Positions 28,503 through 64,000 of a DNA stretch of 64,000 nt are shown here, piece by piece (position 1 is the stretch's first letter; every line of letters begins with the position of its first letter). Under the pieces are notes generated by a model. That model was not told the origin of the DNA. It saw nothing but the letters and a program-made list of their open reading frames with translations, and ran no database searches. Made by a program: the position numbers and the translations under genes. Source of the stretch: Cyanidioschyzon merolae. Taxonomy: Eukaryota. The stretch lies in the NCBI GenBank assembly GCA_000091205.1, contig AP006502.2. One strand, written 5' to 3'.

Positions 28503-28565
28503 GTTTGAAGGACATACGGGAACACCTGACCATGCCATAGTGTCGCTGCTGTAAAGGATGCACCA

Positions 28566-28722
28566 AGGCTGTATACGAGAAAGAGTCGTAGATCGCAACT
28601 TTTGCCTTTACACGAAACGCATTTGCAACAGCCGGAAACAGGGAAATCGGGACTTGAGTGCTGCCTTCATCCTCCTCCGAATACTGACAACGGCATTGGA
28701 GGAACTGAGAAGAGTGGCGAAT
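28566..28722 (-). CDS. R-unit ORF-B conserved segment (antisense, in unit tail): ...QFLQCRCQYSEEDEGSTQVPISLFPAVANAFRVKAKVAIYDSFSYTA...; no in-frame ATG upstream (stop at 28723-28725), so start or exon structure unresolved
   Basis: Codon-wise comparison with the D1 segment shows at least 8 third-position synonymous differences (gtc/gta, tcc/tcg, ccg/cca, gca/gct, gcg/gca, gca/gct, atc/att, tct/tcc); homologous peptide also in D2 and R3. Confidence 0.4.
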
Positions 28723-34503: not shown

Positions 34504-35312
34504 TGCGCCGCCAACAGTGATACGGACGCCTCAACCCGACGCCCTCAGTGGCATGGCAAAACCGTTCTGTCTCCGTGCAGTACCTGCTTCAGCGGGATAA
34601 GCGCTACGGCGAGAGCTCAAAACAGCTACTCGGCACACGATAGAACATACGAAACGACCAGTATACCCGAGAGGAAGTATGGGTTATAGAACTTGAAGGT
34701 AGGCGCTTCATCATTAACGCTTTCCCGAAATCCAGTATCCGTTCCGAATTCTGGAATCCAAGGTCAATCTAAACATTTTGTCATCTGAAAAACTTCAGTT
34801 ATGCGGAACGCTCCGCGTATTGGACGCCCTGCTCGCAAGCATCTCCAGTGGAGCTCTGGCCGCCTTGTCTGCCGCTAGCATCTTTTGTGCTACTGGGGGA
34901 TCACTGCTCCGACACAATGATAAGGTGGCATGGAAAATGGCCTAGTTCATTCAGTAACCCGCTTACGAGCGAGCAAGATTTGCGCTGATTGGCTAGTGCA
35001 CCCAGATGCACGCAACCGACGGCATGGAATTGGGTCAAGTCTGTTCAAGAATTCGTTCACGAACGAGTAACATTTTTGCTGTCGGGGTATCGTGCCTGAG
35101 TGCACGCATCCTGCACCATGAACGTGAGATCAGGTGAATGGAACAGCCCTGAACGTGTCGTATTCTTTAGTGTCATTTGCAGTGAAGGAAACGGCGCTGG
35201 AACAAAGCAAAAATGACGCCAAAGCGGGGCATCGCCGTCGGATCGGTTGCGCACACTAGACATCGCTGCGTCCGGGTTTGCTGGACTCGTAAGCGACCGA
35301 TTACTTCAGTTT

Positions 35313-43344: not shown

Positions 43345-43998
43345 ATGCTTACGTTACACACTCTTCAGGTTTCCGATCAAGAATTTTCAAGGCAATTCAT
43401 GGGCAGAACAAATCGCGCTGCTGGGTTGGTGAATAAGGATACTCGATGTTGTAATTTGACGACTCGCTCACAAGCTCATGTCGAAAGCGCACAGAGCTTG
43501 TCGGGTCAAGTAATCTATTCCATTCGAAAAACGAATCTTCTCCTCTCCTTAAGCATCCATACAGCTGCATTCTACACCAGCGTGGTCTCCCGCACGAGAT
43601 ATGCTCCCTGAGGCTCTCGTTTCTTTGTGTTGGATGGAAAGCGGGGCCTTCAGCTCGGAATTGCGTCGTTGAACTTATCGCTTCCAGTAAGGTGTATAAC
43701 ACCTTTTCGCACGGAGGAACCGTAGACGAATCGACGTTTCTCGATCTGATCTGCAGCCTGGATTTTGCCTCCGGCACTCGTCTCATCATGGACAACACCG
43801 TGTCCCAGAAACCGTCTATCGAAAGGAAGACTGCTTGTCCGAGGGTGCAGCGGACAGCGCACTCGCCGAGCAAAACGCCCAGAACAATGCAGTGATCGTT
43901 GGGTACTTTATGGGCCGCGCGAACGGGGAAGGGCATTTAGGCTCGCCTTCCGTACTCCTTAGGCGCATGGAACGAGCGATGAGGCATGTGTTCACGTG
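43345..43998 (+). pseudogene. R-unit ORF-A homolog with at least two frameshifts (pieces 43345..43611, 43692..43895, and a +1 frame to 43998)
   Basis: MLTLHTLQVSDQEFSRQFMGRTNRAAG...NLLLSLSIHTAAF aligns with the R2 N-terminus; ESTFLDLICSLDF and (shifted) AADSALAEQNAQNNAVIVGYFMGRANGEGHLGS align with the R2 body. Confidence 0.5.
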
Positions 43999-44087
43999 AA
44001 ACAGGGCGGGCCTCGGAGCAGGTGGAGGTGTGGCGGACGCATGCGAATACCCGATGACAGCCAAATTCCACAGCTGCGATGTGCGCA

Positions 44088-44285
44088 TCACGGCTGCACA
44101 CAAACGAGTTCGTAGATCACAATTTCCGCCCTTGCACCAAAAGCATCGACTGTAACCGCAAGTAACGAAAAAGGGAGTTTATCGCTACCATCAAAATCCT
44201 TCGTCAGGTGAATAGGGAGCTGAAGCGAAAGGGGAGACAGACGTATTTGAAACCTTCCATAAAAGCTAGAAAATAGAGTAGTCAC
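44088..44285 (-). CDS. R-unit ORF-B homolog segment (..TKDFDGSDKLPFSLLAVTVDAFGARAEIVIYELVCVQP*); listed start is GTG, no ATG
   Basis: Aligns with R2 SEEDEGSTQVPISLFPAVANAFRVKAKVAIYDSFSYTA and D1 SSEDIDRSVQVLISLFPAIACA..AKEAIHAS. Confidence 0.4.
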   Translation of the reverse strand: MTTLFSSFYGRFQIRLSPLSLQLPIHLTKDFDGSDKLPFSLLAVTVDAFGARAEIVIYELVCVQP

Positions 44286-44942
44286 AGAAAAAGCCTGCAG
44301 ATGCTGACTTGTGCGGAATCACGGGAAGCGTTCCAAACGTTTCAGTGTGTATGCCCGAGTTAGCTTTGCGCAGTCGTTCCACTGAATACGAATATGGGTA
44401 CATGCGTTCCCAACTCAATGCAGCAATCCTGTACAAAGAAAAGATCCCATCGAGCCGATGCCCTCTGTGGAATGGCAAAGCTGTTCTGTTTTTGTGCTGC
44501 ACCCGCTCCAGCTGTTTAGGCGCTGTTGCGGATGCTCTCGGCAGGCGCTAGGCACACGATAGAACGAATGAAACGACCAGTATTTCCGAGAAGAAGTATG
44601 GGTCATGTAACTTGGAAGCAGCATATGGATCGATGGATGCCTCGCCGCGCACCGAAACAAAAAACCAAAAAAAAGAAAGGAAAAGAAGAGTCGCTCATTC
44701 GGAGAACGCTGGAATATGGAAACGCCGTGTCAATTAAAAAAATAGAACAAAATTACCACACCGTGTCCAGGATCGCGAAGCGCAGGCCGACGTCCGTCGA
44801 ACGCGGCGCCTACGTGCCACGCGTATTTCGCATGGAAACTGTTGTTGTAGCGTCGCACCCCGAAGCTCACGAGAGCGTGCTTTCTTAACTTGGCCCTAGC
44901 ACGTGAGCTGAAGCATACTCCCCCAACGGCCAGACAAGTTTT

Positions 44943-45284
44943 ATGAGCGACCTTTCTGACCTTGGAGTTACGAAACCATTTGACCCATTCGCTGATGCTG
45001 ACACTGACTCCGGCGTCGTGACGAAAAACCTCGTGCACATTCGTCTGCAGATGCGCAGTGGTCGGAAGAGCCTGACGACCATCCAAGGCCTTTCAGGAAA
45101 AATTGATTTACACAAGCTGACAAAGGCTTTCAAGAAGGAGTTTTGCTGCAACGGTTCTATTGTAGAGGATAAAGAGCTTGGACGCGTGATCCAGCTCCAA
45201 GGCGACCAACGAGAAAACGTGCGCCGCTTCCTCATCGAGGAAGAGCTCGTTGACAAGGATAACATTAAAGTGCATGGAATGTGA
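44943..45284 (+). CDS. SUI1: translation initiation factor eIF1 (SUI1 domain)
   Basis: 113-aa protein with VHIRLQMRSGRKSLTTIQGL...EFCCNGSIVED...VIQLQGDQRENVRRFLIEEELVDKDNIKVHG, the eIF1 signature; ATG verified. Confidence 0.9.
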   Translation: MSDLSDLGVTKPFDPFADADTDSGVVTKNLVHIRLQMRSGRKSLTTIQGLSGKIDLHKLTKAFKKEFCCNGSIVEDKELGRVIQLQGDQRENVRRFLIEEELVDKDNIKVHGM

Positions 45285-46239
45285 GGAAAATGTTTCACGA
45301 AGGTCTCCAAAACGACCATCAAGTGAAATACACGTGGCGGTGGGGTTACTCCACACAGCTTCCGTACCAGCGTGAGCAGCGGTGTCTGGGCTCTTGGCTG
45401 CTTGCATCAGTGCGCTCGCAGAATACTGATCTTCGGGGAGCGCGAAGCTCCAGGGCAGAACGCGACCTGTGCGCTTCACGGTGGAAGCGGTTTGCCTCTA
45501 TGGTTTGGAAGAAAATAGGTTCGATTGAACCCAATGGTCATGTCCTGCGGAGCGAGCAGGACCAATCGAGGACAGAGAATGTTGCGACGCAGGTAGTGCT
45601 GGATGCGTGGCAAAACATTCAGAGGCAACGGTGGCAATATACCGCCTGCGCTACTGATATGCGTGTAAAAGGTAAGATGAATGGACTGGACAAAAGAAAT
45701 CGCAGCCTCGCCCAGACCTTAGGATAATTGCCGTATTCAATGCTGTGACACCCCCGATGCGTGCCATCGAATGCTTTTTTGTCAGTGTAGAGCAGGAGAT
45801 GGAAATCAAGATGCAATACACCGTAGAGATCGTAGGCGATTTCCCTGCAGGATAGATATTCTTAACTGAACAGTGCAAGGAGGACTGCATTAATCCGTCA
45901 GGTCAGTCATACCGAAATACACAGATAATCGACGAACGCTGACAGAAACAAATATATGCGCTCCACGCTAATAACAGATATTCTCAAAGCGTGCTTGCGG
46001 TCCTTGGTAGTAAACGGACCATTGATCACCTCACGAAGAGCAATAGCGACGATAGCGGACACATCGGCGTCTCTGTTTCTCAGCAGTTGGATCGTCCGGT
46101 CCCGCAAACAATGGGGTACAGTCGCAAAATTCCTAGTTCAAGCACCGCTATCTTTCACTGAAATCGCAATGGCAGAATTCCTAGAAGCTTGCGATCGGTA
46201 TGAAGCACAGATAAGTCGGTTTGTTTTTTTTTCAGTCGA

Positions 46240-47185
46240 TGAGACTTCCCTCTGACAAAACGGTCTCAGCGCATATGGGTACTCGCGGAGCAGGAAGCCC
46301 CCTGTATGCACGATGGAAATCGAGAAGAACGAGGACATCTTCCTCTGTTCTAACTGCAGGGAATTCATCTGGCGGCCTCCGTTTCGCTCGTAGAGAGGGC
46401 TCATCCAACAGCATCGTTTTCGTAGCATCATTCAAGACTTTTCCCCTTACGTCTAATGACTTCCATCTATCGGACAACGGAAAATTTCACCGTTCTCTGT
46501 GCGTTGGAACTTTTGCCGACGCTAACGGGGTAGAGCTGCTTTTCATTCCTGTGTAGGCCCCGTGGTTCAACTCCATCGAAGGAGCGTTTTCTATCGTGAA
46601 ACTTAACGATCGCGTCGCTGGACAAGTCCCTACGGCTTCCAGCACACTGGGGCACTTATTGACTTTCTAGCTCTGCGAATTTCCATACCTAAAGGCATAA
46701 AGAGCAGCTTTCATGCGAAGAATTACAAAATCCAAGGGAAGGGTATGGAGATGGAAATCGAGGATCCTGGAGGCCCGCCATCCTCGGCTGCCGGAAAAGA
46801 ACGAATAGAATCCTCTTCTCGCGAAAAGCCGAACGAAGAAGAGCCAGTGACGAAGAAGAAGATGGGAAATGGGTAAGGACAGTGGTTCGCCCGATGGTAC
46901 GATGACGAGACTGTTGTGACACAGGGAGCACGAGTACTAGTAATCCTTGCAATAATGTGTTCAACCAGCGGCGGGAAACGCATGGAGTTCTTGAACCGAG
47001 ACTTCAACGCCGCCATTCATATCAGAAGATGTGCGGTGCTCAAGACAAGATCCGCGGAGCTGACACGACCCAACTTCCTGGGGCAGTCTCTCAGGCTCGA
47101 AGTGCACGGTGAAAAACTGCAACCGATAGCAGGGGAACGGTCAGAAACGGCTGGGAGGCGCCTGTGAGTTGGTATATATATGCAG
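46240..47185 (+). mobile_element. 5'-truncated TnpB/Fanzor-like copy, decayed
   Basis: ORF 46221..46556 (..VSAHMGTRGAGSPLY..), frame-shifted ..PWFNSIEGAFSIVKLNDR.., then ORF 46916..47167 ..CSTSGGKRMEFLNRDFNAAIHIRRCAVLKTRSAELTRPNFLGQSLRLEVHGEKLQPIAG. Confidence 0.55.
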
Positions 47186-47287
47186 CCTATGGCAGCGAAA
47201 CGTTCTCGCGCCATGAACCGCAGGCAGGATCTGGTGACTTGCATTTCGAGTTTCTTCTGCGCATGACTGGGACGTGCAAGGACCATT

Positions 47288-48901
47288 TTACATATGAGGG
47301 TGTGCAGGTTCCATTTTCCTAGGCGCTGATTTGATAACATCATCCACGCGGAGGATCATTTCAGCTGCTTCTGTTGCGGATGAAAGCACGTGTGCTTTCA
47401 GTCGGAAAGACTCCACGACACCTAAAGCTCGGGCATCGGCGATAGAACCCGAGAGGATATCCAAACCAGCCGAAGTGTTGCCCTGAGCGTGCGCAGCTCG
47501 AAGCTCCGCCACGAGACTCGTCGCATCGAGACCCGCGTTTTCCGCGATAAGGCCTGGAAGACTGCGGAGAGCGCGAGCAAATGCCTCCGCCGCCAGCGCG
47601 GCTTTGCCGCCCATACGTGCCGCACACGCATCCACTGCATTCGCCATGAGTGCCTCCGAGCAACCGGCTCCCAAAACTAGTCGGGAGTCTACGACGAGTT
47701 GGCTCAGTACACAGAGGGCATCGTGCAACGAACGCTCAGCTTCATCGAGAATCTGCTGGTTCGCACCCCGGATGACGATCGAGCAAGCTTCTGGCGCCCG
47801 ACATCCCTGAAAATGCAGTACAGCGTCGTCCCCGATCATGATCTCTTCGATAACGGCACATTCACCGAGCCGAATGGCCCCCGGACTATCGAAGGTACTG
47901 ACGATTTCACCGCCGGTCACAAGCGCTAGGCGCTCAATGCCATCGAAATCTGCGTGTTCAATACTGTTGATACCATTATCCGTGAAAAATTGCTCCGGAC
48001 GATTGTAAATGAGTTGACGATTGACAAAAACATTGCATCCGTAACCGAGAATACGACGACATTTCTCTATCATCTTTTCCTGCTCCGCTTGTTCTATTTC
48101 CGCAACACGTGCAATTGACTCTGTCCGAACACGAGCACCATAGATTTTGATCTTATCCGTATCCATCGGTGTGTTGGCAATCAAAATTTTTGCATTTTCG
48201 ACACGTTTCTTCTGGCCTACGCCGAAGCGCTTCTCCAGAATGAAGCCTTCCGCCAGGAATGACTCATGAAGGGCACCGCCGGGTTTTTTAATGATTTTAA
48301 TATGATCCAGGTTCGTGCTACCTTGCAAGCGGATCACAGCATCTACCGCGATCTTCGCAAAGAGCTCCCTGCACTGCGACAGAACTTTCGAGGACAGCGC
48401 CGTGCGCGCAACGTTCATAAGCGCCTCGTAGCCAGCCGGAGTGTCTTTCGCGGGTAGGGCCATGGCGGCTTCTTCGAGTGCTTTCAGCGCCTCTCGATGG
48501 GCAGCACGGTATCCGGCTATGATCAACTGAGGGTGCAAGCGCCTTTCGAGGAGCTGTTCCGCTTCACGCAACAGCTCACCCGCTAAACAGCAAACCGAGG
48601 TGGTGCCGTCCCCGATCTCATCGTCCTGCACCAGAGCAATATCAACGAGGATCTTCACCGCTGGGTTATCAACGTACACAGACTTTAGGATTGTTGCACC
48701 GTCATTCGTAACACTGACCTCCCCAGAAGGAGAGAGGAGAATCTTATCCATCCCACGGGGCCCTAGCGTCGTTTTCAGCAAGTCCGTAATAGCCAGAGCA
48801 CCAGTGAGCAACGATAGGCGCGCGTTCTCTCCCTTCTCTTCGGTAGAACTCGACTTGAGGACTTTCTGGAGTCCAGTCGGTGGTAGCCTCAACTGCGTCA
48901 T
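47288..48901 (-). CDS. CCT2: T-complex protein 1 subunit beta (chaperonin CCT2)
   Basis: [30 protein letters not shown]...[55 protein letters not shown] matches CCT beta; ATG verified. Confidence 0.9.
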
Positions 48902-51040: not shown

Positions 51041-52471
51041 ATGCCTCCAGTAATAGATGTTTGCGACTCGTTTGCCACAAGTGTACCATGGCTGAATATG
51101 CTGGACTCACTATCGCTTCCGCCGTTCCGCTCCCCGGAGGCGTGCACAGGTCTATTCCAGTATTCACTCGAATCGTTTTGCTGCGGCCAGTCTGCCTTTA
51201 GCGCGCAGAAGATAGGCGAAGTCGCTGTCATGATTGTGAGGATTGCTTGTGGCCCTGGTGTTCGAAAGACGCTGCATCAATCGCTGGCTTCTGCGAAGCA
51301 TGGCGTGCGATGTACGTCTCAACAGAAACGCGCAAACCCGGCAGATGCTGGGAGAGAGACATTTATAGAGAGCTCGTCAGCGACGCCTTCGGGGAAAGAC
51401 CTAAGACTTAGTCGATCGCGCAGCAAAGAGAACGCACCGGATCACGCATGGGCGCGAAGTGTTACGGGTGACGTACTGTTTACGGTAACAGATCCAACCG
51501 GTGTTCTGATGGATGGGACCATGCATGCCGGAGCGTACCATCGCATTCTCCAAGCGCGAGAACATCTCATCGGCAGTAGCATCGTGAATGAAAGCGGCAG
51601 CATCCAGACAACTGCTGCGTGCGCCTTGCTCGACGGCACCGAATGTGGAACCGTATTGTTGCTGCGGGACGCAACCTTGCTCCACTTTGCGAAGAGCGGA
51701 CCCCATCTGAGCGTCCATCCCGTTAATATCGCCGGAATATTCCTAGCTGGAGACCGTCCCTCGCTGCGCGTCCAACGATTCTTGGATGTCTCTCGAGCGC
51801 TAAGTCGTAGCCAGCTTTTCGACTCTTATGCCTTCGCTGGGCATTTCGCAGCGGGCGTCCTTCGAAAAGAGTCGGATGCTCTGGTACACGCCGCGGACAC
51901 CGACGAAGATCGCGAACTCTTGGACATCATCGAGCAAACGGCGGCCGCGGAAAGCCGCACACCGAGCGTCTCGAGAACGATCGCTGGTTCCAGTCATGAG
52001 GCAGAGAACAAACGCATAAGGGTTGATCTAATGTCCTCAGTGACGGGCGATTTCAGGCCGTGGGTGCTCGACGACGAATTCGGCTCCGTGGAGTCGTACG
52101 TTCCGGCATCGGCGCAACCCTTTCGTGAGATTACGAACATGCCGTGTAGTAGCGCTCCCTCTCTGACTCCATCGAAGAGGCCATCGGGCTATCTCTCGCT
52201 CTCAGGGAGCACAGCACCGAATGGTCTCGCGCCAGCCGAAACCCCCGTACATAGCTCCGAAGCTGATTCCTTTCTGCTAGAACTGGCTCGAGAAGCAGAA
52301 AAAAAGCCACTTGCGAGGAGCACGAACGCTGCGGATCCCGCACCTCAACCAAGTAACGTTTCTGGAGACACGGTGCTGGCCGCTCGGAAGTCTGTCCAAG
52401 AAACACCTAGTCCTGCTAGCAGTAAGGACGACCTCGACGTCGTTTTATGGCAACTGGTGCCGGAGACCTGA
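51041..52471 (+). CDS. hypothetical Ser/Ala/Pro-rich protein (476 aa), likely largely disordered
   Basis: Long ORF starting on a verified ATG; no recognisable domain. Confidence 0.4.
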   Translation: MPPVIDVCDSFATSVPWLNMLDSLSLPPFRSPEACTGLFQYSLESFCCGQSAFSAQKIGEVAVMIVRIACGPGVRKTLHQSLASAKHGVRCTSQQKRANPADAGRETFIESSSATPSGKDLRLSRSRSKENAPDHAWARSVTGDVLFTVTDPTGVLMDGTMHAGAYHRILQAREHLIGSSIVNESGSIQTTAACALLDGTECGTVLLLRDATLLHFAKSGPHLSVHPVNIAGIFLAGDRPSLRVQRFLDVSRALSRSQLFDSYAFAGHFAAGVLRKESDALVHAADTDEDRELLDIIEQTAAAESRTPSVSRTIAGSSHEAENKRIRVDLMSSVTGDFRPWVLDDEFGSVESYVPASAQPFREITNMPCSSAPSLTPSKRPSGYLSLSGSTAPNGLAPAETPVHSSEADSFLLELAREAEKKPLARSTNAADPAPQPSNVSGDTVLAARKSVQETPSPASSKDDLDVVLWQLVPET

Positions 52472-52511
52472 GTTTTCTGGCTTGTGGAATCCATTCAACA
52501 AAGACGTTTGG

Positions 52512-54025
52512 ACTCAGAAACGTCCAATGGTGGAACTCCGTTGTCATCTACCGATTGCCGACGAAAACCCTTCCCAGTGTATAAATACGGTGCTCCCTCG
52601 TTTCTGGATTGCTGAAACCGACCTCACCAATGACTTCATCCAGGAAATCATCCAATATCCTGGCTCATGGCCACAGATGTTTCTCGACGAACGTCGATAG
52701 CGTTGCAGCACAACGCCAGTACCGCGTACGAAACGATTTGCCTGAAAGTTCGGTCGGCAGAAAGTCGCAGGACGCTCCGCAAGCACCAGATATTACCGAA
52801 TGCCGATCGAGTCGCTCAAGTCCTAGTACACCGTGTGCTTGTGTACATTGCGGGGTGTGGCGTATCACAGCAAAGCAGGCGCTCAGCTTGGATTGCCTCG
52901 CCATCTGGTGTTCGGTCTGCTTGCCATACGCCATGCTGCGCATCCGGCACGGAGTTGCGCTGCTCTTGTTCTCTACCAGTTTCAGCAAGCACCCGTGCTC
53001 GTGATGTGTGGATGTCGTCCTGAGCGCATCGATGGGAGTGTTCCAGGGTCCATTCTCGCACACGTTGGACGCCCTCGTTGAAGGGGCAGGAATGCAGGTG
53101 CTGTTCGCTACCGGACGTGTATCGCGCTGGACTCGCGCCAAACGACCCGACTTGTCAGCCGTTTCCATTGCCGCCCTGTAAACGAGGAACCTCCGGTGAG
53201 ACGCGTAAATGCACTTCGTAAAGTCGCTCGAGTGCTTCGCGCTTGCTCACAAACACCAGCTGCAGCTCGCCAAGGAGCCCGCGCACCACACTACACATGT
53301 GTCTCCGTGCATCTCGTGGATCTACGTGTAACGTACGCGCACGATACCCAGTAGACGCGGGACGAGCAAGAACGGTCGGCTTCGGCGGCGGACGCTGCGT
53401 CGCTCTGGAGGGATCAGCTCAGGGTCGCTCTCGCAGGTGTCTTGCCTGCGAGCGGCGGAGTCCCTCTTTAGTGAGTACCCGTGTATCGGCGTATCAGTTC
53501 TCTCCCGAGTGAGGTCTTGTCGAGTGCGAGAAACATCCGTTCGTGGTGTAGCACAGGCTGGCCATTCCGGCACGGAATCCTCAGCATATGGATCAATGCG
53601 GGACGGTCTCGAGTAGAGGCATGCGTTTCTCGTTGTCCAACCGCGTCTCTTCATCAGCGTTTGCATCAGCCATGCGAAAGCTGTGCTTTCTTTGGTCTCT
53701 TCTATGGTATTTCTCGGAAACGTGTGTTATGAAATGAATCGACGAGGAGGTAGTCGTTCAGCTAGAAATTCAAAAATTCTGTTTTCGGTGCTCGACATTC
53801 AACATAAGGCGTAGGCGGTGTGATGCCCATGGACCGTCTGCGTGCAGGACACTTGACTTGCAGAGGTAAACCCATTTTCGGAAGCGAAAGCGGCAGAATC
53901 AAGTCTTTCCGCGAACATTCTCTAGTCGGCAGCACATATTTCTTTTATTGCATACTTGCGAGAAAAACTAGCGAATAGGCGGGTTGGTACAAGTGCTCCA
54001 GAATTCACTGCTCCATGTGTAACCA
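52512..54025 (+). repeat. 1.5-kb direct repeat, copy A (~99.6% identical to copy B)
   Basis: Identity begins at actcag(a/t)aacgtccaatggtggaactccg and ends at ...ccatgtgtaacca; only a handful of single-base differences seen by eye (cct/ctt, gta/ata, gac/ggc, gga/gaa). Confidence 0.9.
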
Positions 54026-55394
54026 ATTCTTTTCTGATGACAAAACGTTTACATCGACCATGGATCCGAGGATTCGGAAAGTATAATGGCTTTCGGGAAA
54101 GCGTCCATCATGAAGCATCTAGCTTCAAGTTCTATCACCCATACATGCTCTCTGATATACTGGTCGTTTCGTATGTTCTATAGTGCGCCGACTAGCTGTT
54201 TTGAGCACCCGCCGTAGCGCTTATATACCGCTGAAGCAGGTGCTGCACGGAGACAGAACGGCTTTGGCATACCGCTGAGGGCGTCGGCTCGAGGCGTGGT
54301 TCATCGGACACGGAGTCGGAGTACTTAATCATTCTAGGAGCCTGGAAGCTGCGCGGAGAGACGCACTGCCTGCGGCGGCACGGTGCGATATACTGGGCGT
54401 CCACTGCGACCAGGGCGACGCCCAGACGCAGCATACACGCTCCTAGTCCCAGATTGAATTGCATTGCGGACGAGTAGCTCAGGTTTCTTTAAAGAACCCG
54501 CCACTGAAGGAAGCATGAAGCACTAGCTAGCCCCGAAGACTCGTCCGGCTCGCGGGACCTTCCGCCTAGAAGGTAAACTTTCCAAGATACTGAAACTTTT
54601 CCCCATTTCAACGCTTACAATTAAGATCAAACGAAACTGTTATCGAGTTGCTAGTCAGTGCATAGTTTCTGTTTTTTTTTCGCATCGACGTCGATGCTCG
54701 GTGGATCAGGGCCTAGTTCCATTCAGCGGCAGCGACGGCGTGCCAGAATCCTGATGGAAGTGCTTTAAGAGGCTGCTTGTTTGAAGGTTAGCCTATTTGC
54801 GCTCGGGTCGCTGCTCTTTCTATATTGTCCGGGAAGAGTTCTTCGACAAGCATTGACCTTAGACGGCGAGAAGCAGCGCTTAGAGTCACAGCAAAGCTGC
54901 TTTCTGCGAAAACTGCGCGCAGGACAAGCGGTGACGCTTCCTTCGAGAGCGGCGCTCTTGGTTTTGGTGCGACAGGAACGGCTCGCAGTTCGGTAGACTT
55001 GGGTTTGGGTGGAGCTCGGAGATTTAAGGTGGTGCGCGAGATTGATAAGCGTAAACGAGTGGCGCGTTCCGCAACGTGCGATTCTTCGTGGCACCGAGGA
55101 GAACGCACGCATCCTCTAGCTTGAGCGTCACGCATTTTGTTTTGCTTACGTTGAGGCCTTCATAGATTGGTGGCGTCTTTGACAAGATCCGGGAATTTTT
55201 CGTTGCCCAGGGGCGAGATTTTTGAGACCAGGGGGTATCCCAGCCAAGTTACCGGAACTGCACCGCACTCGTGGCCGGTGTTCAACGAACGGCGATTTTG
55301 AGAGTCTTCTGAGCACGTATCCAGCGGATATAGTAGCGTTCACGAGACACGTACGTGCTTACCCGTGAACCCCTGTCGCCTCTCGAAGGGCATC

Positions 55395-57080
55395 ATGGAG
55401 CATTCCGGCAGCCGGGCCCCGTTGGATCCTGAAGGCGCGGGTGCTCGAACACAGGACTCTTTTCGCGTCTTCTACAGCCAAGATGATGTGAATGGAGGCA
55501 AGCTGTACATAGGCGAAAAGCTCAAGTCCAAAGTTGTGCGTAAGCTTCACTCCCTGTCCATTGAGGAAGGAAACGCGCGAATAGCGGAGTCTTCAGACAG
55601 TGCATTGGAGGAAGGCACGTCCGATGCCTCTCGCGAGGGCTCTTTTGCGCCCTCTCCACGTGCGTCTTCTGCAAGAGCAGCTGAGACTGTAGAGTGCCCT
55701 AAGGTACTATCAGGAGAGAGCGCTCGGGATGTCGCCGCCCACAAGGACGAGCCAATGGTGTCGATAGCGGGGCCTCGTGACCACGCCTCTGCGGAAGCGA
55801 AATCGATCGATAACAGGACTTGGGGCGCAGCGCGGAGCTCAAAAGATCTCTCGTTAGATGATCCGATCAGACCCGTTGTATCTGCACATCCAGTGGAAGC
55901 GCATTCGGATCGACATACGTTTGCGTTCGAGAACTTGAGCAGTCGCCCGCACATCAGAGAGTCTCGTCCAAAGTTCATCTCGAAGTACGTACTTGGGGCT
56001 CGCCTTGGCGAGGGCGCCTACGCCAAAGTCAAGGAGGCCATGGATACGACCACGCTTAGAATCGTTGCTTGCAAAATTGTTGACAAACGCTTCCTACGCA
56101 AAGTGCGCGGTGGCCTCGAAAACGTCCGACGTGAGATCGCCATTATGCGGTCGCTGGATCATCCAAACATTGTGCGCTTGCTAGATGTTATTGATGGTGA
56201 GGATTCGATGAAACTCTACATATTCATGGAGCTCAGCAACGGATGCACTGTTCAGGAGCTCATGGAGCGTGCACCTCAAAAGCGGCTACCACCTGGACAA
56301 GCCCAGTCTTTTTTCGCGCAACTGATCGAAGGACTTGCATATATTCATTCTCGGAATATCGTGCACCGAGACATCAAACCCTCGAATCTTATGCTTGCCA
56401 CGGATGGTGTTCTGAAAATCGCGGACTTTGGTGTAGCCGAATTTCTCGACAAATTCGATGCCGAGGGGCGTATCACGAGGACCGTTGGCTCGCCTGCATT
56501 CCAGGCACCAGAGATTGCGCGGGGTAATGGCATGTTTCTGGGGCGAAAAGTCGACGCCTGGGCTGCCGGCGTCACGCTCTACATGATGCTTACTGGCGAG
56601 GCGCCTTTCAAAGGATCCAATCAGTTTGAACTCTTCCGCAATATAGGCCGGGGCGAGTTTCATATGCCATCTGATTTGATCGACGAGGAATGTCAGGATC
56701 TCTTGCGGAGACTCATGGAAGTGAATCCCGAAGTCCGGAGCACCGTCGACGACCTTCGTGATCACAACTGGTTGCGAAAACGCTACGACGATGAGCATGC
56801 ATGGATTCCGATTCCGCGACGTCATCCCAAAATCCTCGACATGGTCTCTCGCCTGTACGAAGACGATCCCGAGATGTCGACTCAGAGCACGAGTCCCATC
56901 GAGTCAGACGCCGAGAAGAGCAGCGTGCAACGAGCGCAAAGACCCACATCCATCGTCACCACCCAACTTGGTGATCGTCGGAGCATTACGAATGAGGGAG
57001 CAGCAGAACCTACTCTGGAACAGGGCGAATCCGGATCTCCTGGAGAGAGCTCATGGCGCAAACGATGTACTTTAATGTAG
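55395..57080 (+). CDS. Ser/Thr protein kinase, LKB1/STK11-like catalytic domain with long low-complexity N-terminal region
   Basis: YVLGARLGEGAYAKVKE...HRDIKPSNLML...KIADFGVAEFL...GSPAFQAPEIARG...KVDAWAAGVTLYMMLTGEAPFKGSNQFELFRNIGRGEF...DLLRRLMEVNPEVRSTVDDLRDHNWLRK parallels LKB1 subdomains VI-XI; listed start 55365 is GTG, first ATG 55395. Confidence 0.8.
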   Translation: MEHSGSRAPLDPEGAGARTQDSFRVFYSQDDVNGGKLYIGEKLKSKVVRKLHSLSIEEGNARIAESSDSALEEGTSDASREGSFAPSPRASSARAAETVECPKVLSGESARDVAAHKDEPMVSIAGPRDHASAEAKSIDNRTWGAARSSKDLSLDDPIRPVVSAHPVEAHSDRHTFAFENLSSRPHIRESRPKFISKYVLGARLGEGAYAKVKEAMDTTTLRIVACKIVDKRFLRKVRGGLENVRREIAIMRSLDHPNIVRLLDVIDGEDSMKLYIFMELSNGCTVQELMERAPQKRLPPGQAQSFFAQLIEGLAYIHSRNIVHRDIKPSNLMLATDGVLKIADFGVAEFLDKFDAEGRITRTVGSPAFQAPEIARGNGMFLGRKVDAWAAGVTLYMMLTGEAPFKGSNQFELFRNIGRGEFHMPSDLIDEECQDLLRRLMEVNPEVRSTVDDLRDHNWLRKRYDDEHAWIPIPRRHPKILDMVSRLYEDDPEMSTQSTSPIESDAEKSSVQRAQRPTSIVTTQLGDRRSITNEGAAEPTLEQGESGSPGESSWRKRCTLM

Positions 57081-57157
57081 GATGGGCGCGGTGTTCAGGA
57101 CGGGAAACGAATACTGCGCCAAAAGCGCCATGCTGCAAACCGACGGGGGTCGGTGTA

Positions 57158-58670
57158 CTCAGTAACGTCCAATGGTGGAACTCCGTTGTCATCTACCGAT
57201 TGCCGACGAAAACCCTTCCCAGTGTATAAATACGGTGCTCCCTCGTTTCTGGATTGCTGAAACCGACCTCACCAATGACTTCATCCAGGAAATCATCCAA
57301 TATCCTGGCTCATGGCCACAGATGTTTCTCGACGAACGTCGATAGCGTTGCAGCACAACGCCAGTACCGCGTACGAAACGATTTGCCTGAAAGTTCGGTC
57401 GGCAGAAAGTCGCAGGACGCTCCGCAAGCACCAGATATTACCGAATGCCGATCGAGTCGCTCAAGTCTTAGTACACCGTGTGCTTGTGTACATTGCGGGG
57501 TGTGGCGTATCACAGCAAAGCAGGCGCTCAGCTTGGATTGCCTCGCCATCTGGTGTTCGGTCTGCTTGCCATACGCCATGCTGCGCATCCGGCACGGAGT
57601 TGCGCTGCTCTTGTTCTCTACCAGTTTCAGCAAGCACCCGTGCTCGTGATGTGTGGATGTCGTCCTGAGCGCATCGATGGGAGTGTTCCAGGGTCCATTC
57701 TCGCACACGTTGGACGCCCTCGTTGAAGGGGCAGGAATGCAGGTGCTGTTCGCTACCGGACGTGTATCGCGCTGGACTCGCGCCAAACGACCCGACTTGT
57801 CAGCCGTTTCCATTGCCGCCCTGTAAACGAGGAACCTCCGGTGAGACGCGTAAATGCACTTCGTAAAGTCGCTCGAGTGCTTCGCGCTTGCTCACAAACA
57901 CCAGCTGCAGCTCGCCAAGGAGCCCGCGCACCACACTACACATGTGTCTCCGTGCATCTCGTGGATCTACGTGTAACATACGCGCACGATACCCAGTAGA
58001 CGCGGGACGAGCAAGAACGGTCGGCTTCGGCGGCGGGCGCTGCGTCGCTCTGGAGGGATCAGCTCAGGGTCGCTCTCGCAGGTGTCTTGCCTGCGAGCGG
58101 CGGAGTCCCTCTTTAGTGAGTACCCGTGTATCGGCGTATCAGTTCTCTCCCGAGTGAGGTCTTGTCGAGTGCGAGAAACATCCGTTCGTGGTGTAGCACA
58201 GGCTGGCCATTCCGGCACGGAATCCTCAGCATATGGATCAATGCGGGACGGTCTCGAGTAGAGGCATGCGTTTCTCGTTGTCCAACCGCGTCTCTTCATC
58301 AGCGTTTGCATCAGCCATGCGAAAGCTGTGCTTTCTTTGGTCTCTTCTATGGTATTTCTCGGAAACGTGTGTTATGAAATGAATCGACGAGGAGGTAGTC
58401 GTTCAGCTAGAAATTCAAAAATTCTGTTTTCGGTGCTCGACATTCAACATAAGGCGTAGGCGGTGTGATGCCCATGGACCGTCTGCGTGCAGGACACTTG
58501 ACTTGCAGAGGTAAACCCATTTTCGAAAGCGAAAGCGGCAGAATCAAGTCTTTCCGCGAACATTCTCTAGTCGGCAGCACATATTTCTTTTATTGCATAC
58601 TTGCGAGAAAAACTAGCGAATAGGCGGGTTGGTACAAGTGCTCCAGAATTCACTGCTCCATGTGTAACCA
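57158..58670 (+). repeat. 1.5-kb direct repeat, copy B
   Basis: See copy A; starts 78 bp after the LKB1-like kinase stop. Confidence 0.9.
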
Positions 58671-59619
58671 TTGCACTCAGTGCACTAGCTCAGCGACGGT
58701 GCCAGTGCAGCGAGTCGGCTCGGGACGCGACGCTGAACGGTAGACACTTGAGCAGCAGCGGCTGGTGGTGGTAAGCGCCTGTTCAAACCTTTTACGTGGT
58801 CCCTGCTCAATGAGAAGTGCTAGGCAGGCTCAATTGTCATCTTGAAGGACGCAGCAGCGGTGAAAGACACCGCATTTGATTTTGAGGATTGATGCTTTGT
58901 CACGGCGGCACATGGAACGTGCCCACAATCCTGGTGCTTTCAACGACCGCTGACGTGTGATGCAGCGAAGTTGCAAGGTCTGTGGAAAGCAGCCAGGGCG
59001 ACGTGCCCAGCGCTGTAGCGTGTACCGGGCGTGATGACGGCTTCTGCTGGGTCATTGCTTCTAATAGACCTCCATTCCTCGGGTAAGCGCGACATCGTAA
59101 CCTCCAGCACCTGGAAACGTCCGCGGAATCTGTTTTACTCCATGGTGCAGCTTCAGGGAAACTACCCTGGAACTCCGACAAGTCGTTTGTTTTCGGCAAC
59201 TGGAAGAGTAGCCACTACTCCACTCTTAACCCGTGGCGTTGCCCGAACCTCGTGCCAGACTCGTCTCTGGGGTTCCCGGTTCGTTCCCACGAGCAGCCGC
59301 GTGCCGACTCCACTGAGGGCGCCAGCTAAGACACCTACAGGGCCACGACAGGTATCGTACGGAGACAGAACGACTCTACCGTCTACTTTTGGGCGTCTTC
59401 GCGGGGTGCGCAAGCGGAGGTACCCTTTGCAACGATGCAGCGGGCTGTATCCTTACACTCGCGAGAGTCCGAGTCACAGGCCCGCCGAACGTTCCCGGTG
59501 GCTTAAACTCGCTCTTCTGACTCGGCTGCGTTCAAGTGAGACAAATCCTATCAAGGCGCATACAGCAGGAATGCATGGCTTTAGGATGAAGCGCGTGGCT
59601 ACTTTTTGGAAATCGCTAG

Positions 59620-61050
59620 CTAAACTTCAGGCTCTGACTTGGTGCTCAGAACACGGGTCTCCTCATCCTGTGCAGCGGTTGCTGGTCGATCTGCGGTGGA
59701 AAGCGCCGCGGAGCTGCTGCCCCGCTCCAACTTTCTGGATGCAAAATTCTTGAAGGGGTTCGCTGGCGAGTTCTCATCAAATGGTTCCACGTCATCCTGG
59801 AGATCTTTGTCTTTCAGAGGCGGATATTGGGAAAAGTCAAGCGGGTCTCGCAGCTTCGGTATGATCGGTGGCGTCTCATTGCGAATAAGATTGAAATCGA
59901 TTTTCCGAAACCACGGATGGCGCTTAATGTCGCTGGCCCCGTTCTCATGTCCGAGTCTTTTGGATGCATCTCGCTTCAGCAGACGTTTGATGAGATTTTT
60001 GCACTCCGGTGAAAGGTGTAGAGATTCATCGAAGCGAATGTTTCCGTGTACAATATTATTGAAAGTTTCATCCTGGTAGGAGCCTTTGAATGGTGTCGTT
60101 CCCGTCAACATCTCGTAGAGAAGAATACCAAACGTCCACCAGTCGACATCGCTCGTATGCCCAACGCCCTGAATAACTTCCGGCGCAATGTACTCCTCGG
60201 TGCCCACGAAGGAATTTGTTGCGTACGGGAGGACAGGCTCAGAATCGACGATCTCAAGATCCTTGAGGTTGCTCCGAGACCCGCGGTTTCCCGAGATCGC
60301 GCCTTTCATGCGATCCAAGAACGAAATCTGATGTTTGATGACACGAGGTGAAACAGGATGCGCCTGCTTGCTCAGATCAAAGTCCGTGAGGGCGATATGT
60401 CCATCAGCGCGCATGAGGATGTTTTCCGGTTTCAGATCTCGGTATATGAAGCCCATGTGATGTAAGTATTCCAGCGCGAGCAGGACCTCAGCCGCGTAGA
60501 AGCGCACGGCATCCTCAGGCAAGCGTTTGTTCGGTTGTCGTTGTAGCACTCGAAAGAATTCTCCCCCTGCGCAGTATTCCATGATGAAATACAGTCGATC
60601 CTTTGTTTGGAAAGATGCATACATCGTAACGATGAATGGATGGTGGGCTGTCGCGAGAATCTCGCGTTCAGTCAAAACGCGCTTCACTTTGTTACGCGCG
60701 ATCATCTCCTCTTTCGTCAGAACCTTCATCGCGTAGAGCTTGGTGGTGCCTTTCAACAGGACAAGATATACTCGGCCAACATCACCCTTCCCAAGTAACT
60801 TCAATTTCTGAAACAAGTGCGGGCCTATCGGTCCGCTAACCGGAAATTCTGGGGTCGGCTGCGCCGCTGACGCAGCCAGCACGTTCTGGTTCTTCCCCGT
60901 TGAGACAACAGCCCCATTCTCTTCAACACTATGCGATGGAGGTGCAGCTGGTGACGGCGAACGTTTTGTTTGAGCGTCAACCTCGGTCAGCGACAAATTC
61001 CGCGCCTCAGTCGTCAAACTCGAAACGTTTTCACCTAGGCCCCCGGGCAT
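59620..61050 (-). CDS. AGC-family Ser/Thr kinase with DFD (not DFG) motif and a ~60-aa activation-segment insert (AGCVIII/NDR-like)
   Basis: FQKLKLLGKGDVGRVYLV...YRDLKPENILM...IALTDFDLSKQ...[insert]...SFVGTEEYIAPEVI...HPWFRKIDFNLIR; listed start 61128 is GTG, first ATG 61050 (MPGGLGENV). Confidence 0.8.
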   Translation of the reverse strand: MPGGLGENVSSLTTEARNLSLTEVDAQTKRSPSPAAPPSHSVEENGAVVSTGKNQNVLAASAAQPTPEFPVSGPIGPHLFQKLKLLGKGDVGRVYLVLLKGTTKLYAMKVLTKEEMIARNKVKRVLTEREILATAHHPFIVTMYASFQTKDRLYFIMEYCAGGEFFRVLQRQPNKRLPEDAVRFYAAEVLLALEYLHHMGFIYRDLKPENILMRADGHIALTDFDLSKQAHPVSPRVIKHQISFLDRMKGAISGNRGSRSNLKDLEIVDSEPVLPYATNSFVGTEEYIAPEVIQGVGHTSDVDWWTFGILLYEMLTGTTPFKGSYQDETFNNIVHGNIRFDESLHLSPECKNLIKRLLKRDASKRLGHENGASDIKRHPWFRKIDFNLIRNETPPIIPKLRDPLDFSQYPPLKDKDLQDDVEPFDENSPANPFKNFASRKLERGSSSAALSTADRPATAAQDEETRVLSTKSEPEV

Positions 61051-64000
61051 TTGTTCTGATAGCTTGAGTGTTCTCGAACGAACGCGTCGCACAACGACCA
61101 GAGCGTAGACTGGAACGGAGCTGCTCACGCAGACACACCCTTCTCCGGGTTTGCGCTGTGCGTAAGTCTCCTATCGACAAGGTAAGCGCGTTTGAAAAAC
61201 CCGCTGTACGCCCTTCTGAAGTCAACTTTTCGAATGAAGACCCAAGGGGCTTGTAAAAAAACTGGCAGTACGGCTCGTGGTGCGATTGCTGTGCTGCCCC
61301 AAAGCTCTGGCAAGCAGCTCTGCCGCGAGTGCTCGCTGCCTACAGTCTGCCTTTTAAGTGACACCACACTCGACGACTGCTGATGCCAGTCTGCTTCCTC
61401 TGAAGACCTTCAAAGGCTTACCACAAGTGTTATCGTCTAAACGCTCCCAGTGTGTGGACGCTGAGGTGCCTCAGAGTATGCGGCGAAAACTCGCCCACAA
61501 CACGTCAAACATTCGAAGCGCATACCGCGGGATACTCGATGGTGCGTTCATGAGGCCGATTCGCTGCGCAGCGCGCGGCTGCCGCGGGCCTCAGACGCCA
61601 ACGATCTCAAATTGCGACGGTGATGGCGTGCGCGTCTGCCCGAGGTGCGCGCAACAGTCGCTGGCAATGATGCGGAGTTCTTCGGGATTGGGCTGGTGCG
61701 GAGGCCGCAGCTGGAGGCGGCCAGCGTAAGGATCAGATCCTCTGCACAACGGACTATGAAACGTATTGGGGCCGCGCCCCAGGTCAGATACCTCTGTGAT
61801 AGACATCGAGGTAACGCGCTCCACTGCATGAGTATTGGAACAGAGATTCCACGCATGAACCAGGGTAGCATCTGTACGTAGGGGGCATAGCTGAATCGAA
61901 CAAGCTCATGATCTTCGATGGAGCACTACTCCAGAACGGATAGAGCCTGCAACAGCCAGCAGTGAAACAGAGACCTTCTACCTGGTTCCTGGAGGCTTCC
62001 GCTGCTCGAAACAATCCTGACTTGATATAGGGTCCTGGAATGTGAAAATTTCCTGCTTCAGCGATAGCAGGGATATGAGGCGGTTGCATGCGCCGCCCCT
62101 GACGTTGAGAATCTTGTAACACGGGGCGCGTCGCTTCCTGCGAATCATGGCAGTGGCTCCACGGATGAGGCTATCTCGGCCAGCTTGGCTGCGATCTCGT
62201 GCTGATTTCGCTGCAATTGTCTCGCGTTCCCGGCTCGAATGCTTCCTCAGGCAATGGCGGGGGTCTCTCACCGCCCCAAGGGCCGTCCATGGAATCCCAC
62301 TCGTGCGATCTGGTTGAAAACGTTCCATATATAAATACAATGGAGCTTTCGAATTTCTGGTACACACTGTTTGTCGGAAATAAGCTCGTGATGCGGGCTT
62401 CCTCTCGTTCGCATTGTCGTCCACGTGACCGAGTAAACATCTAAAGCGATCAACTCGAACTGAGTCTCATGGAGCGATCCACGGTGCGCTGCATTATGCG
62501 TCCTGCGACCAACGCAGACCGCAGTATCCGCGAGGCAGCAATTGCAGATCCTAGTGACCGTGGAGCGCCTCGGCCAGACGCAAACACTGCGTCTCTGACA
62601 TTAGCGTCGTGCCGGGTGTTCTGTCAAGCAAAATTGTCCAGTGAGTTTACTACCATAGCATTCGGGGTAACAGTCTAGACTTCGTGTTGAAGGACGTTCA
62701 ATTGCCACGGCCGACTGTGAGTACTCCAACGAACAGGCTATTCGTCGCGAGGATGAGGTGCCCAGCGATTGCTGTACGATCTGTTCGTTCTATTCGCTTG
62801 GCTCGAGCCAATAGACCTATTGCGGGCAAAAAGGGCTCAAACCCATCGAAGCCAGGATCCTTTATGGAAACTCTAAACGCTACCTATTAGAACGGTATCT
62901 CTGTATTCAGCAGGGAAGCTGAAAATGAACAGGCTCAAGCGGCTGCACGAGAGCTGCCGCTGATCAGCGCTCATACACCACCTGCTTGGCGACCGAGGCC
63001 ACTTGTTACAGCCTGTCCAGTATCCCTGTAAGGAACAGAGGCCCAGTCCGGTAGACCTGCGAATTCGTACGGATATCCGCCGGTTGCGACGCATCCCAAC
63101 GGACATCTGGTCGAAGATCCCACAGACAGGGATCCCCTGGCTCGTATAAACGATCCTAAACCCAAAACATTCATGTTCAAACCCGAATTCGATGCTTTCG
63201 CAAAAAAACGCTTTTCTCAGAAAAGAACATTATCGACAAGTACCTGCCAGATTGATTTGATGGACAGAGCAGTTGCACTCACCATAGACACCTGATTGCT
63301 TGATTGATATCGGCATCTTGGAGAGCGTTTATCATGTTTCATCCTACCTCCGGGTTTTACCAGCTACCACAGGTACCTCCCTTGCGAGACAGCGGCCATT
63401 TCGTACGATCCACTCAGCGCGAAGCCTGCTACGGGCGTCCACAGTGGCGCCCACAGCGCCGGCGCGGATGCAGGACGGAGTCAGAACGCCTTTACCACAC
63501 CACTGGAGAAATCAGCTCGAAATGTGATTCACTCGTCACAGGGTCGGGACGCGTGGATATTCTGGGATATAGTAGACCGCTCAGACAGACCTACTGCTGG
63601 CACTGGCGCGAAACGAATCTCCAGGAGACCGTATCGACCAGGGCGGGGCCGAGACGCAGGCCGCCCTCTCCGGCTACAGAAGAGACTCTATTGCGGAGAG
63701 GTTGCTCCGGATTTGCCACAGCTTTCGGTACTGGAGGCGCACGGTGCTCCATTCTGCATACTCCTCCAACTGGCAGGATCTTTGTCCTAGACAGTAACCC
63801 TCCGAATGTACATAAATCATTCCTCGGTTCATCTCTTGCCTGGGACGCGGGGAACATCGATGAACTACTTGCCAGCTAGCACACAGTTTCTTTTGCCATT
63901 TTCTTTCTAGCTGCTGTCCAGTGGTTAGGTTCTCTCCCTAAAACGAGCCCATAGCGGACGACGCGGCACCGAGTACAGCTGCATCGGACGCGTCTCGCTA

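Follow-up and report, generated by a model that had tools for sequence, protein, structure and literature searches.

Two near-identical direct repeats of about 1.5 kb bracket an LKB1-like protein kinase gene in the red alga Cyanidioschyzon merolae, and the question is how such a pair came to surround a host gene. An earlier note on this DNA, a stretch of 64,000 nucleotides referred to here as the window, had offered four options: a very recent segmental duplication, a solo-repeat pair from an unidentified element, a derivative of a long terminal repeat (LTR) element that captured a gene, or an artefact of assembly. The window belongs to chromosome 20 of strain 10D, and the order of features along it is CMT323C, the upstream repeat (R1), STK11 (BAM83288.1), the downstream repeat (R2) and KIN82.

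Extent of the repeats and the surrounding genes

Self-comparison by BLASTN resolved the pair as a gapless direct repeat of 1517 bp, with R1 at 52509-54025 and R2 at 57154-58670, an offset of 4645 bp and 6 mismatches (99.6% identity) at repeat positions 3, 10, 315, 825, 884 and 1373. The description of near-identical 1.5-kb direct repeats with few single-base changes was thereby confirmed. The coordinates reported previously for the pair also held, with two corrections: the alignment begins 3 bp before the original start, at TG, and in register the second copy should have been placed at 57157 instead of 57158. The termini read TG(G/T)ACTCAG...GTGTAACCA, as the earlier note stated. The true shared unit starts at repeat position 11, the first 10 bp behaving as flank or target-site duplication (TSD), and the cores of R1 and R2 differ at 4 sites. 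The interior between the repeats occupies 54026-57153 (3128 bp). The features of the locus are as follows.

51041-52471, plus strand: CMT323C, hypothetical protein, upstream neighbour; exact match to BAM83287.1 / XP_005539323.1
52509-52518, plus strand: motif m1, TGGACTCAGA, left flank of the putative donor copy; 8 of 10 bases match the R2 TSD; proposed priming microhomology
52519-54025, plus strand: R1 core, 1507 bp, 54% GC; putative donor, non-coding, without a TSD of its own
54030-54450, plus strand: DE fragment, member of a small dispersed repeat family, in the interior; starts 4 bp after the R1 end and is unrelated to R
55395-57080, plus strand: STK11/LKB1-like serine/threonine kinase, 561 aa, intact; Pkinase E=6e-63; exact match to BAM83288.1, 'serine/threonine kinase 11'
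57154-57163, plus strand: left copy of the TSD (m2), TGTACTCAGT
57164-58671, plus strand: R2, probable inserted copy; 1507-bp core and one extra T at the right junction, flanked by the TSD
58672-58681, plus strand: right copy of the TSD, TGCACTCAGT in 10D and TGTACTCAGT in strain contig L017
59620-61128, minus strand: KIN82-like AGC kinase (CMT325C), downstream convergent neighbour; annotated as 476 aa, the open reading frame from the first start codon being 502 aa

CMT323C has a weak HROB-like OB-fold match (PF15072); from its stop codon it is 37 bp to the repeat alignment and 47 bp to the repeat core. R2 starts 83 bp past the stop codon of STK11, between the convergent STK11 and KIN82 genes. 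By locus-tag order, STK11 is presumably CMT324C. That the interior holds a host-type LKB1-like kinase and not gag/pol proved correct, the intact 561-residue protein being identical to its database entry. Cyanidiococcus (L001) and a second relative (L002-L004) have kept the gene order TCP1 / HROB-like / STK11 / KIN82 / hydrolase / RPS2, the STK11 ortholog of Cyanidiococcus yangmingshanensis and that of another relative being flanked by the same genes. Because this order is shared with Cyanidiococcus and another relative, STK11 is considered an intact host gene in its ancestral position, which on the evidence of synteny never moved and was not captured.

The DE fragment is 86% identical to 34526-34791 on the minus strand, with weaker matches at 44450-44619, 16743-17020 and 63452-63675. 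The possibility that this dispersed repeat continues into R1 was rejected, as the homology stops sharply at 54030.

The junctions in independent assemblies

Dozens of environmental assemblies, made independently, reproduce the four repeat junctions. The junction between the CMT323C flank and R1 was found in L009, L010 and L015, a single contig (L034) spans the R1 end, the whole interior and the R2 start, and a contiguous interior-R2-J-KIN82 path is present in L016/L042, L018, L022 and L032. Because every junction was reproduced in independent assemblies, the option of an assembly artefact is contradicted, and an error in the reference sequence has next to no chance of being the explanation. 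The observation in its favor is that some metagenome contigs skip STK11, joining CMT323C-R-KIN82 directly (L007, L008, L013 and L017). However, a check of two skip assemblies recovered the STK11 interior in each, on a contig of its own that breaks off within R2: L054 belongs to the sample that yielded L007, and L055 to the assembly that contains L008. Furthermore, Logan contigs end exactly 40 nt into R2, which is the point where words of k=31 become shared, and the 10D genome has been finished to 100% (PMC1955436). On the evidence of these junctions, the repeat pair is regarded as real in the genome, neither collapsed nor expanded by assembly.

The skip contigs were also considered as a natural deletion of STK11; this was rejected, since the same assemblies contain the STK11 interior in separate contigs. 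'Loop' contigs, which run from the interior end through R to the interior start, were found as well (L011, L012/L043 and L033). Unaligned heads upstream of STK11 occur in L019, L036 and L038. L019 was rejected as a structural variant: its head encodes a low-GC Ran GTPase of another organism and the contig is an assembly chimera.

Repeat content and the comparison with LTR elements

The possibility was considered that the locus is an LTR retrotransposon derivative of the LARD or TRIM kind, in which the internal region has been replaced by a captured kinase gene. The likeness lies in the paired long direct repeats, their 99.6% identity and the nominal TG...CA ends. What would further be expected of this class is a 4-6-bp TSD around the pair, a primer-binding site (PBS), a polypurine tract (PPT), gag/pol or at least non-host sequence inside, and other copies, and none of these was found for R1-STK11-R2. 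The composite 52509-58670 gave no TSD match at 4-10 bp, and its flanks, ACGTT and TTGCA, agree at 1 of 5 positions. R1 is followed by ATTCTTTTCTGATGACAAAACG, which is the start of the unrelated dispersed repeat and contains no PBS-like TGG, in keeping with the earlier statement that no tRNA-complementary site follows the upstream copy. The window offers no tRNA gene with which a PBS could be compared. R2 is preceded by ...AACCGACGGGGGTCGG and then the TSD; the purines are interrupted, the tract is not polypurine, and a hairpin, CCGAC-GGGG-GTCGG, forms. The G-run before the downstream copy is indeed weak, pyrimidines breaking up GACGGGGGTCGG. Junction hairpins were not significant relative to shuffles.

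Moreover, the leading TG belongs to the initial 10 bp, assigned above to flank or TSD. Unlike in LTR elements, the interior holds a host gene whose orthologs occupy the syntenic position, hence not captured, and a TSD of 10 bp instead of 4-6 surrounds one repeat only, R2. Neither other copies nor solo LTRs were found in the scanned JGI metagenome contigs, where a 21-mer from the 5' end of R occurred only at this locus; this collection is evidently without short contigs, as L054 carries the pattern and was not returned. Nozaki et al. 2007 described no LTR retrotransposons in the C. merolae genome (PMC1955436). The captured-gene LTR derivative fails on composite TSD, PBS, PPT, internal coding content, copy number and STK11 synteny, and is scarcely credible as the origin of the locus.

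There is no R paralog elsewhere in the window, and the longest open reading frame of R falls in one 97% cluster, confined to this locus and without distant homologs. A coding or RNA function was not supported, as no open reading frame of R has a Pfam match and no Rfam family, tRNA or homolog was detected. A viral origin was likewise not supported, R having no match in IMG/VR. Terminal inverted repeats were absent from R: when the terminal 100 nt were aligned with the opposite end in reverse complement, the score was 8, compared to a shuffle mean of 8.2, and a separate search detected no inverted repeats. No homologs of R were found in the outgroup loci by blastn, nhmmer or tblastx, and the intergenic DNA of the outgroups could not be aligned even between them. 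A literature search found no paper mentioning the R1-STK11-R2 locus.

R1 and R2 are at least 1 kb long, at least 90% identical and not a high-copy transposable element, which are the criteria of a segmental duplication. A solo-repeat pair from an unidentified element is weakly supported: R was found in no other context, and a TSD is present only at R2.

The target-site duplication and the origin of R2

The earlier note had seen no TSD and had called for a search once the boundaries were defined exactly. The negative statement held for the composite (4-6 bp) and for R1, which alone has no TSD at any length tested, but not for R2, the only copy around which a 10-bp TSD was found. The two copies read TGTACTCAGT and TG(C/T)ACTCAGT and match at 9 of 10 positions in the window and at all 10 in strain contig L017; a match of at least 9/10 at the same spacing is expected at ~5e-5 of window positions. 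The R2 junctions read ...GTGTAACCA-T-TSD and TSD-AACGTCC.... The probability of a match of at least 8/10 between m1 and the R2 target is 4e-4, and no m1-like motif is present in the interior. On the side of the CMT323C flank, position 3 is G and position 10 is A in every contig with the base called. On the side of the interior flank, T is invariant at position 3; at position 10, most contigs have T and four have A. By eye, the duplication seemed to extend beyond R; this was rejected, because the interior and the sequence to the right of R2 aligned locally no better than shuffles.

The recent segmental duplication thus survives from the original list, and more precisely the locus is likely to be a small non-tandem segmental duplication, a duplicative insertion in which R1 was copied once into a site downstream of STK11. 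The donor would be the 1.5-kb non-coding stretch just downstream of CMT323C and upstream of STK11, and R2 would be a copy of it pasted at a distance of 4.6 kb, 83 bp past the stop codon of STK11. The target would have been a staggered break, leaving TGTACTCAGT as a 10-bp TSD. The 3' end of this target resembles the left neighbor of the donor, TGGACTCAGA, at 8 of 10 bases, and the broken end may have paired with that sequence and served as the primer from which the donor was copied, through synthesis-dependent repair or template switching on DNA, the far end being joined with one filler T. Priming by microhomology at a staggered break is the mechanism proposed from these junction sequences, which by themselves do not establish how the copying took place. 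R1 is the putative ancestral copy, the intergenic DNA of the outgroups being too diverged to show it as such. No empty-site allele, for which GGGGGTCGGTGTACTCAGTGCACTAGC is the predicted sequence, was found. Break repair and template switching do not usually leave a 10-bp TSD; transposition or LINE-mediated insertion would account for it better, and this counts against the explanation.

Following the insertion, R1 and R2 would have been kept near-identical by gene conversion. Within 10D, R1 and R2 are distinguished by 4 core sites, whereas the R2 alleles of other strains differ from that of 10D at 8-15 sites, and the insertion site is common to all strains. Because the paralogs differ less than the strains at a shared insertion site, concerted evolution of R1 and R2 is suggested, and gene conversion probably kept both copies alike, on small counts taken from metagenome consensus contigs.

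The alternative that the TSD brings to mind is RNA-mediated duplication, in which an R1 transcript would have been converted to DNA at a staggered nick by the reverse transcriptase (RT) of one of the non-LTR retrotransposons of the genome (target-primed reverse transcription). Candidates for the transcript are CMT323C RNA, either read-through or 3'-UTR, and a non-coding antisense RNA. Such an event would account for the 10-bp TSD and for the two unlike junctions, one with microhomology and one with a filler base. As in LINE-mediated retrocopies and processed pseudogenes, there is a single derived copy with a TSD within the 7-20-bp range, R2, and the source copy, R1, has no TSD; the 8/10-base microhomology links the target to the donor edge. 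Additionally, the R core starts 47 nt past the CMT323C stop codon, like a 5'-truncated copy of a 3'-UTR. The class I elements reported in the C. merolae genome are without exception closest to non-LTR retrotransposons, the only kind described there, and an intact RT open reading frame is present in three of them (PMC1955436). However, R2 differs from LINE-mediated retrocopies in having no poly(A), poly(T) or simple-repeat tail at either end, no run of A or T being found at its junctions on either strand, and the copied segment is non-coding intergenic DNA with no known transcript. The window contains no RT gene and there is only one such copy. RNA-mediated duplication is accordingly rated as unlikely, if less so than the readings that follow.

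It was also considered that R is a low-copy, non-autonomous mobile element with 10-bp TSDs and TGNACTCAGW targets, which entered both flanks of STK11 in separate events, R1 later losing its right-hand TSD, e.g. when the adjacent dispersed element arrived. TGNACTCAGW motifs stand exactly at three of the four junctions and occur elsewhere in the window at background frequency, and the dispersed-repeat fragment does begin 4 bp after R1. R resembles Mutator-like elements and Pack-MULEs in its TSD, which is within their 9-11-bp range, and in being non-coding and non-autonomous. Unlike these elements, R has no terminal inverted repeats, no second TSD at R1, no coding capacity and no family of copies, and no other context of R was seen in the JGI metagenome contigs or in the open reading frame clusters. 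It would take a coincidence for two insertions, and no others, to land 3 kb from each other in the same orientation. A mobile element of this kind is very unlikely.

A two-step origin would begin with unequal exchange between short TGNACTCAG motifs, producing a tandem 4645-bp unit (R-I-R-I) from which the second interior was then deleted. Similar motifs are present at the start of both copies, a hybrid TGTACTCAGA is found at the R2 left junction in four contigs, and loop contigs exist. The deletion would have had to end exactly beside the motif and mimic a perfect TSD, and the expected interior-motif-J junction was absent from 57 of 57 loci. The loop contigs are the trivial path through a collapsed repeat. 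This origin is highly improbable.

The single insertion of an R1 copy downstream of STK11 may also be set beside the low-copy repeats of other genomes. CMT1A-REP repeats flank human PMP22; they are low-copy repeats and substrates for non-allelic homologous recombination. Both systems consist of two long direct repeats of >99% identity that are locus-specific, are not transposable elements and flank a conserved single-copy gene, and both have gene conversion (probable in R1/R2) and possible deletion or duplication of the enclosed gene. R1/R2 are unlike CMT1A-REP in being much smaller (1.5-kb repeats and a 3.1-kb interior), in lying in a very compact genome, and in the clean 10-bp TSD and microhomology footprint at the derived copy, with no rearranged allele demonstrated.

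C. merolae is valued as a model organism for its minimal, fully finished genome, which is nearly free of transposons, and for its highly efficient homologous recombination. As the 2007 genome paper reports no LTR retrotransposons, a genuine LTR pair in this alga would have deserved attention; the locus gives no reason to revise that absence. Instead, it offers a clean, datable case of a compact genome making a small dispersed duplication, with donor, target, 10-bp TSD and microhomology footprint. The locus is also of practical concern for targeting or assembly, as short-read assemblies repeatedly mis-thread R1-STK11-R2. It is quite unlikely, although conceivable, that R is a still-mobile copy-and-paste unit, RNA-mediated by the few non-LTR RTs, with R-STK11-R as a recombination cassette and the skip and loop contigs as real variants; if so, these hot-spring metagenome contigs would represent deletion, excision or tandem amplification of STK11 in wild populations. 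Direct repeats could in any event delete or amplify STK11 by homologous recombination, and in a recombination-proficient alga a 1.5-kb pair around the energy-sensing LKB1/STK11 should expose the gene to pop-out or amplification.

The repeat pair and its support in independent assemblies

Comparison of the window with itself gave one gapless direct repeat, designated R, in which 52509-54025 aligned with 57154-58670 over 1517 bp at an offset of 4645 bp, with six mismatches (99.6% identity; repeat positions 3, 10, 315, 825, 884 and 1373). The interior between the two copies (3128 bp) contains the open reading frame of a 561-residue protein kinase (Pkinase, E=6e-63). The earlier note's description of near-identical repeats bracketing a kinase gene is thus confirmed, with its register off by a few bases. 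Exact protein matches place the window on chromosome 20 of C. merolae 10D; outside the repeat region it is unremarkable host sequence, densely packed with genes.

Features at the repeat pair
51041-52471, CMT323C, exact match to BAM83287.1
52519-54025, core of R1, the copy between CMT323C and STK11
54026-57153, interior
55395-57080, STK11, exact protein match to BAM83288.1, 'serine/threonine kinase 11'
57164-58671, R2, the copy between STK11 and KIN82, including one extra T at the right junction
59620-61128 (-), CMT325C, KIN82-like kinase, convergent gene downstream of R2

The suspicion that the duplication is an assembly artefact was not borne out, since every R junction recurs in assemblies made independently (Logan, JGI, ENA) from strains that share 99.1-99.9% identity with the window. 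The junction from CMT323C into R was seen in contigs L009, L010 and L015, and the path from the interior through R2 and the right flank to KIN82 in L016/L042, L018, L022 and L032. A single contig, L034, runs from 127 nt before the end of R1, across the entire interior, to 130 nt into R2. Logan contigs end exactly 40 nt into R2 because 31-mers are no longer unique there, past the copy-specific base at position 10. Some contigs skip the interior (CMT323C-R-KIN82; L007, L008, L013, L017) and others loop through it (interior-R-interior; L011, L012/L043, L033). A natural deletion of STK11 in the skip contigs was considered and rejected, since in both skip assemblies checked the STK11 interior is present too, on a contig of its own that ends in R2 (L054 with L007, L055 with L008). 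Skip and loop contigs are the wrong threading of a collapsed repeat.

Four STK11-carrying metagenome contigs begin with sequence that fails to align to the window (L019, 1-859; L036, 1-121; L038, 1-115; L039, 1-35). L019 (Logan SRR29605863_520) is a chimera, as its head encodes a low-GC Ran GTPase of another organism. Many contigs break within 54440-54900, upstream of STK11.

STK11 synteny and the LTR question

The gene order TCP1(-), HROB-like(+), STK11(+), KIN82(-), hydrolase(+), RPS2(-) is identical in the window and in the relatives compared, Cyanidiococcus yangmingshanensis (L001) and a second relative from metagenomes (L002-L004). Between these and C. merolae coding DNA alone aligns, at 75-80% identity, and the STK11-to-KIN82 spacer is 2540 bp in the window versus 363 bp and ~720 bp in the relatives. 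With the order conserved and the relatives' spacers shorter, STK11 is ancestral at its present position, and the extra DNA is the thing to explain. Capture of the kinase was rejected because STK11 occupies the same gene order in both relatives. A 991-residue gene model from a related alga (P0005, EukProt ctg_672.g370) fuses the HROB-like protein to the STK11 kinase domain and is probably a mis-merged prediction of two adjacent genes. The window has genes for two different TCP-1/CCT chaperonin subunits less than 8 kb apart, at 39639-41363(+) and 47288-48901(-), and the relatives' loci have the same pair.

An LTR derivative with a captured gene, also raised in the earlier note, thus fails on synteny, and R1-STK11-R2 is not an LTR element, as the defining features fail. 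No 4-6-bp target-site duplication (TSD) was found at the boundaries of the R1-interior-R2 composite, and no gag/pol at R-STK11-R. There is no primer-binding site after R1, where a small, unrelated dispersed repeat begins (ATTCTTTTCTGATG...), and no polypurine tract before R2, where the tract is a GC hairpin. The finished C. merolae genome was reported to have no LTR retrotransposons, its 26 class I elements all being closest to non-LTR retrotransposons, together with 8 class II elements and a 253-copy interspersed element (Nozaki et al. 2007, PMC1955436), although fragments labelled LTR/Copia and LTR/Gypsy occur in the Ensembl RepeatMasker tracks.

Were R itself a mobile element, a target preference and the loss of R1's second TSD would be needed, and copy number gives this no support. 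No R paralog was found elsewhere within the window, and the six JGI metagenome contigs matched by a 21-mer from the R 5' end were all this locus. The longest R open reading frame gave a single 97% cluster, without a distant homolog, among 5.8 billion proteins; R had no match in IMG/VR and no terminal inverted repeats.

Origin and age of R2

In all strains repeat position 3 tracks the left flank (G next to CMT323C, T next to the interior). Position 10 mostly does so, being A beside CMT323C wherever called and T by the interior, but A at the interior side in four contigs. The remaining variable sites are polymorphic in both flank contexts. Since positions 3 and, mostly, 10 follow the left flank, the truly shared unit, as read from these alleles, starts at position 11 (AACGTCC...).

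The earlier report of no TSD holds for the composite and for R1, where none was found, but not for R2. To the left of R2 stands TGTACTCAGT and to its right T-TGCACTCAGT; strain contig L017 has TGTACTCAGT as the right copy as well, which makes its 10-bp duplication perfect. Matches of at least 9/10 at the R2 flank spacing occurred at 3 of 56,072 control positions. No motif matching the left flank of R1 was found anywhere in the interior; that flank, TGGACTCAGA, agrees with the target at 8 of 10 bases (P = 4e-4). One hairpin (GACGTTT-N8-AAACGTC, 52502-52524) spans the left edge of R1, 31 nt past the CMT323C stop, and another (CCGAC-GGGG-GTCGG, 57139-57152) lies just before the R2 TSD, ~60 nt past the STK11 stop. 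Neither was significant against shuffles; they could be 3'-end signals.

R1-STK11-R2 is a genuine small segmental duplication of an ordinary kind, whose insertion left traces that are unusually easy to read; it is neither gene capture nor artefact. The recent segmental duplication proposed earlier is upheld. R1 would be the donor and R2 the derived copy, inserted by duplication in one event at a staggered break of 10 bp, 83 bp 3' of the STK11 stop codon. Copying was probably primed by the 3' end of the target, annealed to the nearly matching sequence at the left edge of the donor. A DNA template, in synthesis-dependent repair or template switching, is favoured because inspection of both ends of R found no A or T tail. 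Alternatively, a non-LTR reverse transcriptase may have copied an R1 transcript; this route agrees better with the TSD but left no poly(A).

The R2 insertion site is common to every sampled strain, with no empty site among 57 loci. The 10D R1 and R2 cores differ at 4 of 1507 sites, whereas between 10D R2 and the R2 alleles of four other haplotypes there are 8-15 differing sites; nucleotide diversity in R2 (pi 0.0050) is similar to that in the DNA nearby. That paralogs are closer than alleles, and that four contigs carry the R1-type base at R2 position 10, suggests gene conversion between the copies, in a comparison of small counts and of metagenome consensus sequences that may mix R copies.

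Other repeats and possible consequences

A ~1-kb repeat is present at 27750-28817 and 30467-31535 (direct) and at 12048-12969 (inverted), each copy with a 203-224-residue open reading frame having no Pfam match. The two direct copies bracket a phosphomannomutase gene (29338-30123, -), echoing R-STK11-R. The near-identical ~750-bp core with progressively diverging flanks would fit gene conversion between dispersed repeats, and the repeat may belong to the 253-copy interspersed element (Nozaki et al. 2007, PMC1955436). A ~3.5-kb composite at 43700-47200 has several segments, variously oriented, at 73-77% identity to 22200-27100 and to the 224-residue-frame repeat; in size it agrees with the 3.2-kb interspersed repetitive element known in C. 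merolae (PMC1955436). A small dispersed intergenic family (70-86% identity) has a copy at 54030-54450, starting 4 bp past the R1 end; its copy at 34.5 kb lies in the divergent promoter region of an aldose epimerase gene and a PCI-domain gene.

Other dispersed-family copies and tandem arrays
16743-17020 (-), dispersed intergenic family
34526-34791 (-), dispersed intergenic family
44450-44619 (-), dispersed intergenic family
63452-63675 (+), dispersed intergenic family
645-849, tandem array, perfect 2 x 102-bp duplication
3318-3862, tandem array, 85-bp unit x 6.4, 170/255-bp higher order
14160-14462, tandem array, 75-bp unit x 4, within open reading frame 13792-14748(-)

The stop codons of CMT323C and STK11 are followed by the same 1.5 kb, from 47 nt and 83 nt respectively, and the two genes may share 3'-end signals. 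Homologous recombination is efficient in C. merolae. Since 1.5-kb direct repeats flank STK11 in such a host, pop-out or tandem amplification of the gene would be mechanistically easy.
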